DNA of 64,000 nt, taken from Escherichia coli. GTDB taxonomy: Bacteria > Pseudomonadota > Gammaproteobacteria > Enterobacterales > Enterobacteriaceae. Shown one piece after another: positions 6,422 to 41,161 of the stretch. Location: NCBI RefSeq assembly GCF_003334815.1, contig NZ_QOWO01000002.1; one strand, 5' to 3'. Under the pieces are notes generated by a model, which worked only from the letters and a program-made list of their open reading frames with translations, ran no database searches and was not told the DNA's origin. How positions within the stretch are numbered: position 1 is the first letter of the stretch; the number at the start of each line of letters is the position of its first letter. The position numbers and the translations under genes are program-made.

Positions 6422-6742
6422 ATGGGTAAAACGAACGACTGGCTGGACTTTGATCAACTGGCGGAAGAAAAAGTTCGCGACGCGCTAAAACCGCCATCTA
6501 TGTATAAAGTGATATTAGTCAATGATGATTACACTCCGATGGAGTTTGTTATTGACGTGTTACAAAAATTCTTTTCTTATGATGTAGAACGTGCAACGCA
6601 ATTGATGCTCGCTGTTCACTACCAGGGGAAGGCCATTTGCGGAGTCTTTACCGCCGAGGTTGCAGAAACCAAAGTGGCGATGGTGAACAAGTACGCGAGG
6701 GAGAATGAGCATCCATTGCTGTGTACGCTAGAAAAAGCCTGA
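6422..6742 (+). CDS. clpS: ClpS, N-degron adaptor for ClpAP
   Basis: 106-aa ORF recognised as ClpS; immediately upstream of clpA. Confidence 0.93.
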
Positions 6743-24277: not shown

Positions 24278-24467
24278 CTCCCTTTGATACCGAACAATAA
24301 TTACTCCTCACTTACACGTAATACTACTTTCGAGTGAAAATCTACCTATCTCTTTGATTTTCAAATTATTCGATGTATACAAGCCTATATAGCGAACTGC
24401 TATAGAAATAATTACACAATACGGTTTGTTACTGGAATCAATCGTGAGCAAGCTTGAGTGAGCCATT

Positions 24468-33848: not shown

Positions 33849-34589
33849 TTAGAACATTACCTTATGACCGTACTGCTCAAGAATGCCTTTCACGCGTTCC
33901 ATGGTCTCTTTCTTCGGTGGTTTAACACCGTCGAGTTTGTACTCTTCACCCATTGCCACCCATTTGTGTTTGCCCAGCTCGTGGTAGGGGAGAAGCTCGA
34001 TTTTCTCAACGTTGCCCATATCACGGGTAAATTCACCGAGGCGATGCGCTGAATCGTCATCGTCAGACCAGCCTGGGACAACAACGTAGCGGATCCACAC
34101 CTTCACATTTTTGTTCGCCAGATATTTAGCGAACTCCAGCGTGCGGTGGTTGGAAACTCCAACCAGATTTTGGTGGATCTCGTCGTTCATCTGTTTGAGA
34201 TCGAGCATTACCAGGTCGGTTACTTCCAGCAGTTCATCAATCACCGGATCGTAACGACGAACAAAACCGTTGGTGTCCAGACAGGTATGAATGCCTTCTT
34301 TTTTGCAGGCGCGGAACCAGTCACGAACAAACTCAGCTTGCAGGATTGCTTCACCGCCGGATGCGGTAACGCCGCCGCCGGAAGCGTTCATAAAGTGGCG
34401 ATAGGTCACCACTTCCTTCATCAAATCTTCAACGGTAACTTCTTTACCGCCATGCGTGTCCCAGGTGTCGCGGTTATGACAATACAGGCAGCGCATCAGG
34501 CAGCCCTGGAAAAAGGTGATAAAGCGAATACCTGGGCCGTCTACGGTTCCACAGGATTCAAAGGAGTGAATGCGACCAATAACTGACAT
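33849..34589 (-). CDS. pflA: Pyruvate formate-lyase activating enzyme (radical SAM)
   Basis: ORF 33849..34616; start placed at [20 protein letters not shown] (246 aa); CxxxCxxC radical-SAM motif. Confidence 0.95.
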
Positions 34590-34711
34590 TGCGGTGTTTC
34601 TCCAGATGTGGCCCATCTGAGGCCGTGTTGGTGCGCAGCTCGAAGGCTACGTCGAGTCTGTTTTGGCAGTCACCTTAAAGTATAGATAGCTGACAAAAAA
34701 GGCTCTCGCGC

Positions 34712-34740
34712 TAAAAAAGGCCCCACTTTCGTGGAGCCTT
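34712..34740 (-). terminator. Probable Rho-independent terminator of pflB
   Basis: Minus-strand hairpin ggctccac-gaaa-gtggggcc followed by TTTTTT. Confidence 0.5.
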
Positions 34741-34780
34741 TATTGTACGCTTTTTACTGTACGATTTCAGTCAAATCTAA

Positions 34781-37063
<2,283 letters not shown>

Positions 37064-37117
37064 GTAACACCTACCTTCTTAAGTGGATTTTTTATTTACT
37101 GCGTACTTCGACAACCA

Positions 37118-37975
37118 TTAATGGTGGTCGTTTTCACGCAGGTAAATGACCCAGTATGTCAACCCAACCAACAAACCACCACCGATAATGTTGCCGATCG
37201 TAACCGGAATCAGGTTATCAGTGATGAAATTCATCACGGTCAGGTGAGAAAAATTTTCCGGTGCAGAACCGACTGCGGTCCAAAATTCCGGGGATGCGAA
37301 GTCGCGGATTACAATACCCATCGGGATCATAAACATGTTTGCGATACTGTGCTCAAAACCGCTGGCAACAAACATCGCGACCGGCAGCACCATAATGAAC
37401 GCTTTGTCCATCAGGCTGCGGCCAGAATAACTCATCCATACTGCCAGACATACCATCAGGTTTGCCAGGATACCAAGACAGACGGCCTCAATAAAAGTAT
37501 GGTGCACTTTGTGGTCGGCGGTTTGTAGGACGTTTAGTCCCCATTGACCATTTGCGGTCATATACTCGCCGGAAAGCCACATTAAAAGTACAAACAGCAG
37601 TGCGCCGACCAGGTTGCCAAAATAGACATTTAGCCAGTTTTTCGCCAACTGACCCCAGGTGATGCGCCCACTCGCCTTAGCAACAACAATCAACACGGTG
37701 GAAGTAAAGAGATCGGCTCCGCAGACAACACAAAGAATCAGCCCCAGAGAGAAGCAAATGCCGCCAACCAGTTTTGCCATGCCGAAGGGCATTGTGCCTG
37801 TGCCAGTGGTTGCTGTGATATAGAAGACGAATGCGATTGAGATGAAAACACCGGCGGTAATCGCCAGATAGAAAGTCTTAAGCGGATGTTTCGTTGCTTT
37901 ATAGACACCCGCCTCTTCGGCCACTTTGGCCATTGCAGCAGGAAGTAAAAGATCAAAAGGGTTGTCAGCTTTCAC
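37118..37975 (-). CDS. focA: Formate channel FocA
   Basis: ORF 37118..38149; start placed at GTG giving MKADNPFDLLLPAAMAKVAEEAG (285 aa). Confidence 0.9.
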   Translation of the reverse strand: MKADNPFDLLLPAAMAKVAEEAGVYKATKHPLKTFYLAITAGVFISIAFVFYITATTGTGTMPFGMAKLVGGICFSLGLILCVVCGADLFTSTVLIVVAKASGRITWGQLAKNWLNVYFGNLVGALLFVLLMWLSGEYMTANGQWGLNVLQTADHKVHHTFIEAVCLGILANLMVCLAVWMSYSGRSLMDKAFIMVLPVAMFVASGFEHSIANMFMIPMGIVIRDFASPEFWTAVGSAPENFSHLTVMNFITDNLIPVTIGNIIGGGLLVGLTYWVIYLRENDHH

Positions 37976-38035
37976 ACTAACTCTCTCTTTATTAAGTCGG
38001 CGACGAGATACTAACAAAGCATTATAGATGAGAAA

Positions 38036-38049
38036 TTGATATAGATCAT
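38036..38049. promoter_or_regulatory. FNR-type site (TTGAT-N4-ATCAT) upstream of focA-pflB
   Basis: ttgatatagatcat is a 9/10 match to the FNR/CRP-family consensus TTGAT-N4-ATCAA, about 60 bp upstream of focA start. Confidence 0.45.
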
Positions 38050-38304
38050 ATCTCGCCTGGCTTATAGGCCCGTAACTCGCATGGTTTTTATGCAAATACG
38101 GAGTAAATATTTGATTATCCAAATAAAAATAAATTTTAAAAATTAACAAATGAGTTGAATTTTTTCCGCATCCTCCGCTAAAACAGTTAATTAAAAGGGA
38201 GCATCAGGCGAATAAAGTAACAATATCGATCGTATTTATTAAATACAAATTACCGATATTTAACCTTATAATTACAATTATTTTATTAATGCAAATATAT
38301 GTAA

Positions 38305-38330
38305 AGCGGGGCATTAAAAAAACGCCCCGT
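38305..38330 (-). terminator. Probable terminator of ycaO
   Basis: Hairpin gcggggc-attaaaaaaa-cgccccg immediately 3' of ycaO. Confidence 0.4.
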
Positions 38331-38380
38331 AATATAACTCAGACTAATCATTAAGCCTACATTGCGTAGGCTATTTGATT

Positions 38381-40141
38381 TTATTTTGCCCAGAATGCTG
38401 CTTTGGCGCGCTGCAGCTTTTCGTAGGCCTTCAACAACGACTGATGTGCAGCAAACGCGTGCAGATCGCTATCTACCGGTTGCAGGCCGTAAAACGCCGC
38501 TTCGCCGCTCATTGCCGCACTGGCGGCTTCTACGGCATCTGCGCCGTACATGCGAACAAACGCATTCAGATATTGCAGCGGCTGGCGATCTTCTTCCTGT
38601 GCCAGTAATAACAACGTTTGCAGGCAGCGATAATAGTTGGCGCGTTCCGGACTAAATACTGATGAGTTAAACTCCATCGTCCATTCGGTCCAGACCAGAG
38701 CCTGTTCCAGATCGCCACCAGCCAGCGCCAGCATGGCTTTTAATTCACCGATACGCAGGGTGTACCAACCGTTATCCGACCCGGTCGCCAGACCCAACAG
38801 CTCACGCACGCGGGTAAAGTCATCAAAACCTTCTTCATCCAGTTGCTCGATGAGGTTCAGGTAATCTTCTTTTTCCCACTCGCTGCCTGGTAGCGAAAGA
38901 ATCGTTTCACGTAAATGGCTGCCCATACTGTTATTCGCGAGCCACAGATCTTCAGCCGGATAAATATCGGACATGCCAGGCACGATAATACGGCAAGCAT
39001 AAACGCCCAGATGCTCGTAATCGGCAATATAAACTTCTTTATCTTCTTTGTTGAAGATAGCCATCAGTGTGGCGAACTCTTCTTCCGTGGTGCCGGAGAA
39101 ATTCCAGTCCACAAACGGATAATCGGCATCCTGCTTGAACAGGTCCCAGGAGATTAAACCGCTGGAATCGATAAAGTGCGTTTCGAGGTTGGTATGTTCA
39201 GCGACTTCTTCATCATCGAAGGTTGGCGGAGTAAACACATCCAAATCTTTCAGGCCACGACCTTGCAGCAGCTCGGTCACGGTACGTTCCAGTGCTACGC
39301 CAAAATCAGGATGCGCACCGAAAGAGGCAAAGCAGGTACCGTTAGCAGGATTGAACAGTACCACGCAAATCACCGGATACTGGCCGCCAAGCGAACCGTC
39401 ATAAGCGAAGATTGGGAAACCCTCCGCTTCCAGCGTTTCGATGGCTTCAACTACTGCTGGGTAACGCGCCAGCACGTCTGCCGGGATCTCTGGCAGGCTG
39501 ATGCTTTCAGCAATAATGCGGTTTTTCACGTAGCGTTCGAAAACTTCAGACAATCCCTGAACGCGTGCTTCGTTGCGGGTATTACCTGCGGACATACCGT
39601 TGGAGACGTACAGGTTACCAATGATATTCATCGGAATATAAACGGTCTGATTGTCGGACTGACGCGTAAACGGCAGGCCGCAAATACCACGATCTTCGTT
39701 ACCGGATTGTAGGTCAATCAGCATGCTGCCGGTCAGTTCATTCTCCGGATCATAAAACGCGCGCAGACGGTCATCGAGCAGCCCTTCTGGCACATCGTCA
39801 TTTTCGGTCAGTGGGAACCATTTTTCGTTGGGATAATGCACGAACGGACCGTTGGCGATGGTTTCGCCCAGCCAGAAGTCCGCAAAAAAGTAGTTGGTTG
39901 AGAGACGCTCGAAATATTCACCGAGTGCAGAAGCCAGCGCCGCTTTCTTGGTTGCGCCTTTACCGTTGGTAAAACACAGTGCGCACTCTTTGTCGCGAAT
40001 ATGTACAGACCAGACGTTAGGCACGGGATTCAGCCAGGAGGCCTCTTCAATCTGAAAGCCGAGGTCTGAAAGTTTTTGCTGGAAGCGAGCGATGGAATCT
40101 TCCAGAGCGGCATCTTTGCCGGGGATAAATGTTTGCGTCAT
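38381..40141 (-). CDS. ycaO: YcaO-domain protein (ribosomal protein S12 methylthiolation accessory factor)
   Basis: ORF 38381..40174; start placed at MTQTFIPGKDAALEDSIARF (586 aa). Confidence 0.9.
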   Translation of the reverse strand: MTQTFIPGKDAALEDSIARFQQKLSDLGFQIEEASWLNPVPNVWSVHIRDKECALCFTNGKGATKKAALASALGEYFERLSTNYFFADFWLGETIANGPFVHYPNEKWFPLTENDDVPEGLLDDRLRAFYDPENELTGSMLIDLQSGNEDRGICGLPFTRQSDNQTVYIPMNIIGNLYVSNGMSAGNTRNEARVQGLSEVFERYVKNRIIAESISLPEIPADVLARYPAVVEAIETLEAEGFPIFAYDGSLGGQYPVICVVLFNPANGTCFASFGAHPDFGVALERTVTELLQGRGLKDLDVFTPPTFDDEEVAEHTNLETHFIDSSGLISWDLFKQDADYPFVDWNFSGTTEEEFATLMAIFNKEDKEVYIADYEHLGVYACRIIVPGMSDIYPAEDLWLANNSMGSHLRETILSLPGSEWEKEDYLNLIEQLDEEGFDDFTRVRELLGLATGSDNGWYTLRIGELKAMLALAGGDLEQALVWTEWTMEFNSSVFSPERANYYRCLQTLLLLAQEEDRQPLQYLNAFVRMYGADAVEAASAAMSGEAAFYGLQPVDSDLHAFAAHQSLLKAYEKLQRAKAAFWAK

Positions 40142-40270
40142 GAAAATCACTTTAGTCGTACGGAAAGCGCGCAATAATACGGGTTTTATCTCAAAGGCGC
40201 TATCACCGCCGCCATGCCGATGAACTGTTGACTATGCTTTTAGCGGATAAACCACGTTAAGAGCATAAAA

Positions 40271-40963
40271 ATGAAGGCGTTCGATCTCCACCGTATGGCA
40301 TTTGATAAAGTGCCTTTTGATTTCCTTGGCGAAGTTGCACTACGTAGTCTTTATACCTTTGTACTGGTCTTTTTGTTCCTCAAAATGACCGGAAGACGCG
40401 GTGTGCGGCAGATGTCGCTGTTTGAAGTTTTAATCATTCTGACGCTGGGATCAGCGGCGGGAGATGTGGCGTTTTATGATGATGTGCCGATGGTCCCGGT
40501 ACTTATCGTCTTTATTACTCTGGCGTTGTTATACCGCCTGGTAATGTGGTTGATGGCGCACAGTGAAAAACTGGAAGATCTTCTGGAAGGCAAGCCAGTT
40601 GTCATTATTGAAGATGGCGAGCTGGCCTGGTCGAAACTCAATAACTCCAACATGACGGAATTTGAGTTCTTTATGGAGCTACGATTGCGTGGCGTGGAGC
40701 AGCTGGGGCAGGTACGTCTGGCGATTCTCGAAACCAACGGGCAAATCAGTGTCTATTTCTTTGAAGATGACAAGGTGAAACCGGGTTTACTTATTTTACC
40801 CAGTGATTGTACGCAGCGTTACAAAGTGGTGCCGGAGTCGGCGGACTATGCCTGTATTCGTTGTAGTGAAATCATTCATATGAAAGCGGGGGAAAAACAA
40901 TTATGTCCGCGCTGTGCAAATCCAGAATGGACGAAGGCAAGTCGGGCAAAACGGGTGACCTGA
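40271..40963 (+). CDS. ycaP: DUF421 inner-membrane protein YcaP
   Basis: 230-aa ORF recognised as YcaP. Confidence 0.85.
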   Translation: MKAFDLHRMAFDKVPFDFLGEVALRSLYTFVLVFLFLKMTGRRGVRQMSLFEVLIILTLGSAAGDVAFYDDVPMVPVLIVFITLALLYRLVMWLMAHSEKLEDLLEGKPVVIIEDGELAWSKLNNSNMTEFEFFMELRLRGVEQLGQVRLAILETNGQISVYFFEDDKVKPGLLILPSDCTQRYKVVPESADYACIRCSEIIHMKAGEKQLCPRCANPEWTKASRAKRVT

Positions 40964-41161
40964 CAGTAAAAACATCGGCTTTTTGCTAATAATCCGAGAG
41001 ATTCTTTTGTGTGATGCAAGCCACATTTTTGCCCTCAACGGTTTTACTCATTGCGATGTGTGTCACTGAATGATAAAACCGATAGCCACAGGAATAATGT
41101 ATTACCTGTGGTCGCAATCGATTGACCGCGGGTTAATAGCAACGCAACGTGGTGAGGGGAA

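Follow-up and report, generated by a model that had tools for sequence, protein, structure and literature searches.

The ycaO-focA intergenic region

The DNA analysed here is a 64,000-nucleotide stretch of Escherichia coli (the window), and all positions refer to it unless stated otherwise. Positions 34000-41000 of the window were aligned with the genome of E. coli K-12 MG1655 (NC_000913.3) and showed 0 mismatches, and published coordinates were converted as window = NC_000913.3 - 916,491 = U00096.2 - 915,714. All of the relevant genes (pflA, pflB, focA and ycaO) lie on the minus strand, and the layout around the region is as follows.

33849-34616, minus strand: pflA
34781-37063, minus strand: pflB
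37118-37975, minus strand: focA, with a GTG start at 37975-37973
37987-37981 and 37975-37973, minus strand: Shine-Dalgarno sequence GAGAGAG and focA GTG (RefSeq annotation; invariant in the alignment described below)
38381-38383, minus strand: ycaO stop codon

The products of focA and pflB are a formate channel and pyruvate formate-lyase, and the operon yields formate and acetyl-CoA in fermentation. Given that the focA GTG and the ycaO stop flank the interval, 37976-38380 is exactly the 405-bp ycaO-focA intergenic region. Its GC content is 0.309, compared with 0.511 for the whole window, with a trough of 0.235 at 38100-38299. No other 405-bp stretch of the window is as AT-rich, which bears out an earlier reading of this DNA from its letters alone (the sequence-only reading), where the region had been described as strongly AT-rich.

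An open reading frame that extends focA 174 nt upstream to a TTG (37118-38149, minus strand, 343 aa) was rejected as an artefact of an open leader frame; it would span both promoters and the FNR site described below, whereas the conserved GTG at 37975 is the true start codon. The focA orthologue of Klebsiella is annotated 42 nt shorter (816 versus 858 nt).

When the 521 nt around the site (37900-38420) were compared with complete E. coli genomes, a match over at least 80% of the length was found in 5422 of 5426, many of them 100% identical, with 1230 E. coli records falling in the 95-99% identity band. Of 5425 E. coli records, 5395 carried the 71-nt core promoter (38000-38070) at 100% identity. 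Five matches to the 521-nt query were on plasmids, one record contained at least 40 matching pieces, and in four genomes no match reached 80% of the query's length; the plasmid and absent cases are possibly cloned pfl promoter fragments or IS-disrupted alleles.

A complete FNR dyad upstream of focA

The sequence-only reading had pointed to an FNR-type palindrome within this region, at the following position.

38036-38049, minus strand: FNR site 1, centre 38042.5, 67.5 bp upstream of the focA GTG

On the plus strand the site reads TTGATATAGATCAT, and both its coordinates and its agreement with the FNR consensus TTGAT-N4-ATCAA at 9 of 10 positions proved to be as claimed. The term "half-site palindrome" used for it was right in that the motif is a real FNR motif and wrong as to "half-site", since a full 14-bp dyad is present. 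The coding (minus) strand reads ATGATCTATATCAA, so the mismatched half-site is the promoter-distal one.

The consensus match alone is no evidence for a functional site, because matches with at most one mismatch are not more frequent in the 64-kb window than in shuffled sequence (3 found, 2.4 expected; 44 of 100 shuffles were equal or better). A scan with an FNR matrix, which had been suggested together with the motif, was more telling. Using a symmetric position weight matrix (PWM) built from 62 other ChIP-bound FNR sites (Myers et al. 2013), with FNR site 1 left out, the site scored 16.8 bits and outscored every other 14-mer of the 64 kb, the best of which reached 13.2. A consensus count against shuffles can thus miss a true site that is found by PWM, ChIP data and phylogenetic footprinting. 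Another of the three consensus matches, TTGATACCGAACAA at 24284-24297, lies between serS and an 814-aa dmsA open reading frame and coincides with the dmsA FNR ChIP peaks at 939,992 and 940,035 (U00096.2; Myers 2013, PMC3688515); FNR ChIP peaks are thus present at two of the window's three consensus matches, although their number is not above chance. The next-best PWM matches in the window are GTGATATTAGTCAA (13.2 bits) at 6509-6522 and GTGATTTACAGCAA (12.9 bits) at 2874-2887.

Occupancy by FNR and FNR-dependent expression

To relate the dyad to published data, we compared it with genome-wide FNR binding. Table S6 of Myers et al. 2013 (PMC3688515) holds the entry 953750, 14.37, TTGATATAGATCAT, focA, "at FNR ChIP-seq peak +", and since 953,750 (U00096.2) corresponds to window 38036, this entry is FNR site 1 base for base. 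The FNR ChIP-seq summit at 953,741 corresponds to window 38027, 15 bp from the centre of FNR site 1 (PMC3688515). In addition, an Fnr ChIP-exo region with 25-fold enrichment, labelled "Activation, Known", lies over the site (Federowicz et al. 2014, PMC3974632). A lack of FNR ChIP signal had been named in the sequence-only reading as a result that would speak against the motif; ChIP-seq and ChIP-exo are both positive. Enrichment of IHF, H-NS or Fis over FNR site 1 is not reported in Table S6 (Myers 2013, PMC3688515).

In Table 1 of the same study, focA-pflB is classed as directly activated by FNR, with two FNR motifs under the focA peak and the best of them at -40.5 from the EcoCyc start (Myers 2013, PMC3688515). 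Both sigma70 occupancy and expression of focA-pflB are higher without oxygen, and in the fnr mutant focA is expressed at 0.145 of the wild-type level (a drop of about 7-fold) and pflB at 0.21 (Myers 2013, PMC3688515), in line with the anaerobic induction by FNR that had been attributed to the operon.

Conservation of the dyad across Enterobacterales

With a degenerate DNA pattern based on the N-terminus of focA, 83 loci were found in a one-genome-per-species collection of Enterobacterales, including Salmonella, Citrobacter, Klebsiella, Enterobacter, Buttiauxella, Hafnia, Edwardsiella, Sodalis, Winslowiella and other genera. The E. coli window and the 75 loci with at least 420 nt upstream were aligned, giving 76 sequences.

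The dyad of FNR site 1 is kept in all 76, as ATGAT..ATCAA in 67, as ATGAT..GTCAA in 8 and as ATGAA with a spacer longer by 1 nt in one. The 4-base spacer occurs in nine forms among the 76 species, and half-sites that are kept around a variable spacer mark a site for a dimeric protein. The A of the distal half-site, where E. coli departs from the consensus, is itself invariant (76/76).

The P6 promoter and an overlapping TATAAT promoter

Downstream of FNR site 1, two -10 elements were recognized.

38008-38016, minus strand: extended -10 of promoter P6, TGTTAGTAT; TGnTAG(T/A)AT in 76/76 species
38021-38026, minus strand: TATAAT, a perfect -10 of an overlapping promoter, between FNR site 1 and the P6 -10

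The P6 hexamer TAGTAT (38013-38008) has a TG one base upstream and is therefore an extended -10. Wherever the script matched the dyad, the first base of this hexamer is 29.5 nt away from the dyad centre, and this constant distance is exactly class II geometry. With FNR at -41.5, TAGTAT occupies -12 to -7 and the start is 38001 (G), and with FNR at -40.5 the start is 38002; we infer the position of the P6 start from the EcoCyc-derived -40.5 (Myers 2013) together with the conserved geometry. At the -35 position P6 has only a poor element, AATTTC, which is what a class II promoter should show.

The TATAAT hexamer is found in 66 of the 76 species and as TATACT in nine. A start at 953,726 (U00096.2), equal to window 38012, was reported with its 50 upstream nt, which end in ATGATCTATATCAATTTCTCATCTATAATGCTTTGTTA (Kim et al. 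2012, PMC3415461). It is the only single-base start for this region in the retrieved data sets, and the centre of FNR site 1 lies at -30.5 from it, not at -41.5. Aerobic growth is presumably the condition in which this start is active. Where a -35 of the TATAAT promoter would be expected, there is the distal half-site ATGATC, and given this overlap and the -30.5 placement, FNR should occlude that promoter. The TATAAT promoter with start 38012 is presumably P6A, a name that goes back to Kaiser and Sawers in 1997, who reportedly described "overlapping promoters" here. The FNR site at P6 of the pfl operon of E. coli K-12 is said to have been described by Sawers and Bock in 1989.

No match to a focA-region start was found in the start-site data of Ettwiller 2016. 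A generic sigma70 scan of the region returned neither P6 nor the TATAAT promoter, such a scan being uninformative for activator-dependent promoters.

The distance of the motif had been judged compatible with a class II promoter, and a placement outside -35 to -70 of every mapped promoter had been named as evidence to the contrary. The comparison with the EcoCyc P6 start puts the centre at -40.5. The class II placement thus stands for P6, but it does not hold for the overlapping promoter that starts at 38012, which the sequence-only reading had missed and for which the site is at -30.5.

An upstream array of ArcA sites and probable IHF and FNR sites

Upstream of FNR site 1, the alignment and published data outline a further set of elements.

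38104-38140, minus strand: putative IHF site, with a conserved A/T tract, TTAAAATTTATTTTT, in front of the core AATCAAATATTTA (38116-38104)
38155-38168, minus strand: probable FNR site 2, CGGAAAAAATTCAA, 6/10 to the consensus
38181-38196, plus strand: ArcA box, AGTTAATTAA on the plus strand, with a conserved TTTTAATTAAC block
38235-38288, minus strand: ArcA-P multi-direct-repeat site, TAATAAAATAATTGTAATTATAAGGTTAAATATCGGTAATTTGTATTTAATAAA, with a conserved core TTGTAAnnAnnAAGGTTAAAT

When a second strong FNR site was sought by PWM in the intergenic region, nothing else in E. coli scored above 4 bits, and the weak candidate at 38155-38168 was seen through the cross-species comparison only. Its 3' half (A/T)TCAA, conserved as (A/T)TCAAC, is kept in 75 of the 76 species, the common 5' half being nnGAA, and Klebsiella and Raoultella carry ATGAAAAAAATCAA at this position. 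From its centre to that of FNR site 1 the distance is exactly 119 bp in 73/76 species. A conserved -10-like TATTTT (38131-38126) begins 30.5 nt downstream of its centre; on this ground 38155-38168 is probably FNR site 2, with a start of promoter P7 probably near 38119-38120. The two motifs counted under the focA peak in Table 1 agree with this assignment (Myers 2013, PMC3688515).

A different position for P7, near 38270, was considered from a promoter-like match and a sigma70 peak. The match is a sigma70-like TTTACA-17-AATAAT at 38305-38277, the only one given by the sigma70 scan, with hexamers that are poorly conserved in the 76-species alignment, and the peak is a further one for sigma70 in the ChIP data, higher without oxygen, at 954,032, equal to window 38318 (Myers 2013, PMC3688515). 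This position was not adopted, because the hexamers are poorly conserved and the ArcA repeats would cover the start. The peak at 38318 lies near TTTACA-17-AATAAT, about 200 bp upstream of the P7 predicted here, and may reflect a further promoter, the limited resolution of ChIP or the true P7.

The IHF core AATCAAATATTTA is an exact match to WATCAANNNNTTR and is found at a fixed 72.5-73.5 nt from the centre of FNR site 1 in about 70 of the 76 species, within a highly conserved block. An involvement of IHF in focA-pflB control is known from reviews. In focA-pflB control the place of IHF is between P6 and P7, and ArcA acts from a point further upstream than P7, with which the probable assignment of FNR site 2 and P7 made here also agrees.

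Conserved ArcA-type boxes were found at 38196-38184 (the reverse complement of AGTTAATTAA), 38222-38213 and 38277-38258, and they coincide with published ArcA calls. ArcA motif matches in the ArcA region lie at 38103-38117, 38181-38195, 38250-38264 and 38261-38275, the second of these being 953,895-909 in the published coordinates (Federowicz 2014, PMC3974632). A predicted four-repeat ArcA site at 953,949-954,002 corresponds to 38235-38288 and lies under the ArcA ChIP peak at 953,965 (Park 2013, PMC3798270); under this peak there are at least two TGTTA-like repeats with 11-bp spacing, as looked for in an ArcA-P site, and the core repeats are conserved. A role of ArcA at focA-pflB, named along with that of FNR, is thus matched by ArcA ChIP signal covering the region. 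The ArcA and IHF sites, for which the sequence-only reading had suggested a scan, are not at the motif; they lie 60-250 bp further upstream.

Recurrent adaptive insertions of IS1 and IS5 in mouse-gut E. coli have been reported at -174, -201, -203 and -212 from focA, and these insertions raise anaerobic focA expression (Lourenco et al. 2016, PMC5094792). In the window they fall at 38149-38187, clustered between the upstream ArcA repeats and the block of FNR site 2 and IHF.

Hairpins at the 3' end of ycaO

A ycaO 3' hairpin had been suspected in the region, and two were found downstream of the ycaO stop.

38307-38329, minus strand: probable ycaO terminator hairpin, CGGGGCGUU-UUUUU-AAUGCCCCG, -15.7 kcal/mol, z = -3.8
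38354-38372, minus strand: second hairpin, AGCCUAC-GCAAU-GUAGGCU, directly after the ycaO stop, -10.2 kcal/mol, z = -4.2

The hairpin at 38307-38329 is present in 71 of the 76 species, with stems that differ while the pairing is kept (GGGGCG/CGCCCC, GGGGCA/TGCCCC, GGGGCC/GGCCCC). It is followed by a run of at least five T in 62/76 species; E. coli instead has CUUUACAU / CTTTACAT, and it is because of the tail CUUUACAU that the minus-strand scan made no terminator call here. The hairpin at 38354-38372 is not conserved across species and was called terminator-like on the plus strand by the scan. A well-conserved TATATTAC stands directly before the probable terminator hairpin (window 38277-38340).

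An Rfam match to DapZ, a family of sRNAs derived from 3' UTRs, extended over both hairpins with 25 bits against a gathering threshold of 56; this sub-threshold match was rejected as terminator-hairpin resemblance. The ycaO mRNA is 3.8-fold up in the fnr mutant (Myers 2013, PMC3688515).

Alternative explanations and a proposed mechanism

Taken together, 38036-38049 is almost certainly the primary FNR site of P6, a promoter of focA-pflB in E. coli. It might be objected that a palindrome of A and T is easily met by chance in the most AT-rich region of the window and need have no regulatory role, and the consensus count (3 versus 2.4 in shuffles) fits this objection. The PWM score, however, is the highest in 64 kb, FNR ChIP signal lies at the exact coordinate, expression depends on FNR, and all 76 species keep the half-sites whereas spacer and flanks drift, so that ChIP and conservation exclude a chance match for practical purposes. 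Equally negligible is the probability that the protein bound here is not FNR but a relative from the CRP/FNR family, for instance CRP. The distal ATGA is neither of FNR type (TTGA) nor of CRP type (GTGA), and in the CRP register TATGA-N6-TCAAT agrees with TGTGA-N6-TCACA at 7/10 positions, yet the proximal half is of perfect FNR type (TTGAT on the plus strand), ChIP-seq and ChIP-exo are positive for FNR itself, and expression is fnr-dependent.

A third explanation accepts FNR as the ligand and assigns it another role: FNR would mainly repress the TATAAT promoter (start 38012), and anaerobic induction would come from ArcA or an upstream promoter and not from class II activation of P6. The only single-base start retrieved is indeed 38012, where the site at -30.5 has a repressing position, the perfect TATAAT is present in 66/76 species, and the distal ATGATC takes its expected -35 position. 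Loss of fnr nevertheless lowers focA expression about 7-fold and does not raise it, sigma70 occupancy goes up anaerobically, and the extended -10 TGTTAGTAT is invariant at the exact class II distance, which together make this account very improbable. Since activation and occlusion are compatible, occlusion is probably an added effect, not an alternative.

For P6 itself, sequence, in vivo FNR occupancy, FNR-dependent expression, geometry and conservation, all shown here or in the cited data, form the basis of the mechanism. Without oxygen, dimeric [4Fe-4S]-FNR binds the dyad ATGATCTATATCAA, the centre of which is about 41 bp from the P6 start on its upstream side. The bound FNR overlaps the non-existent -35 and probably recruits RNA polymerase to the extended -10 TGTTAGTAT, which is class II activation. 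The same dimer sits at -30.5 of the activator-independent TATAAT promoter and should occlude the start at 38012. As FNR would activate P6 and occlude the TATAAT promoter, initiation would move from a basal aerobic start to a strong anaerobic one, 10-11 nt further downstream. Upstream, IHF, the weak FNR site 2 and several ArcA-P repeats at fixed spacing may modulate the same promoters through a bent complex, and the nucleoprotein-complex model of focA-pflB regulation is consistent with such an array.

These observations can also be read jointly, though only tentatively and with the odds rather against it: the distal ATGAT, in place of TTGAT, would be selected and not the product of decay, perfect consensus would be counter-selected, and one 14-mer would act as a conserved two-promoter switch between a basal aerobic and an induced anaerobic start in a nucleoprotein scaffold of fixed geometry. 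The A kept in 76/76 species, its overlap with the -35 position, the rigid 119 bp and the IHF site in between are the points behind this proposal. Parts of such a switch or scaffold go back to proposals made for E. coli during the 1990s, so that even if the proposal is true, its only new element is the order-wide invariance and its quantitative meaning.

Comparison with known systems

The FNR site at focA-pflB is already known and well studied, and the site described here is that known element itself, not a relative of it. The 14-mer and the coordinate are identical to those at P6 of focA-pflB in E. coli K-12, and there is no difference at what is the same locus (Myers 2013, PMC3688515). The site serves mainly as a positive control, in which a textbook class II FNR site was recovered by a reading of sequence only, and it advances no open question. 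Only two observations are mildly new: the imperfect distal half-site is invariant throughout the order, and the probable second site lies at a rigid 119 bp from the first.

Like dmsA, narG, nirB and yfiD, in which FNR binds near -41.5, P6 has a 14-bp dyad at -40.5/-41.5, a poor -35 and anaerobic induction, and like other class II FNR promoters it depends on a good -10. Unlike those of dmsA, narG, nirB and yfiD, the P6 promoter combines an extended -10 with a second promoter, activator-independent and overlapping, that lies 10-11 nt upstream, and unlike other class II FNR promoters it lies inside a larger array of ArcA, IHF and a probable second FNR site with a rigid 119-bp spacing. The yfiD (grcA) promoter likewise has two FNR sites upstream of a glycyl-radical-enzyme gene and co-regulation by ArcA, the second site at focA being a predicted one. 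The two systems differ in the strength and spacing of these sites: yfiD has two strong sites in Table S6 (17.25 and 13.87), the first bases of which are 53 bp apart (PMC3688515), whereas focA has a single site above the Table S6 threshold, and its probable second site is weak and 119 bp away.
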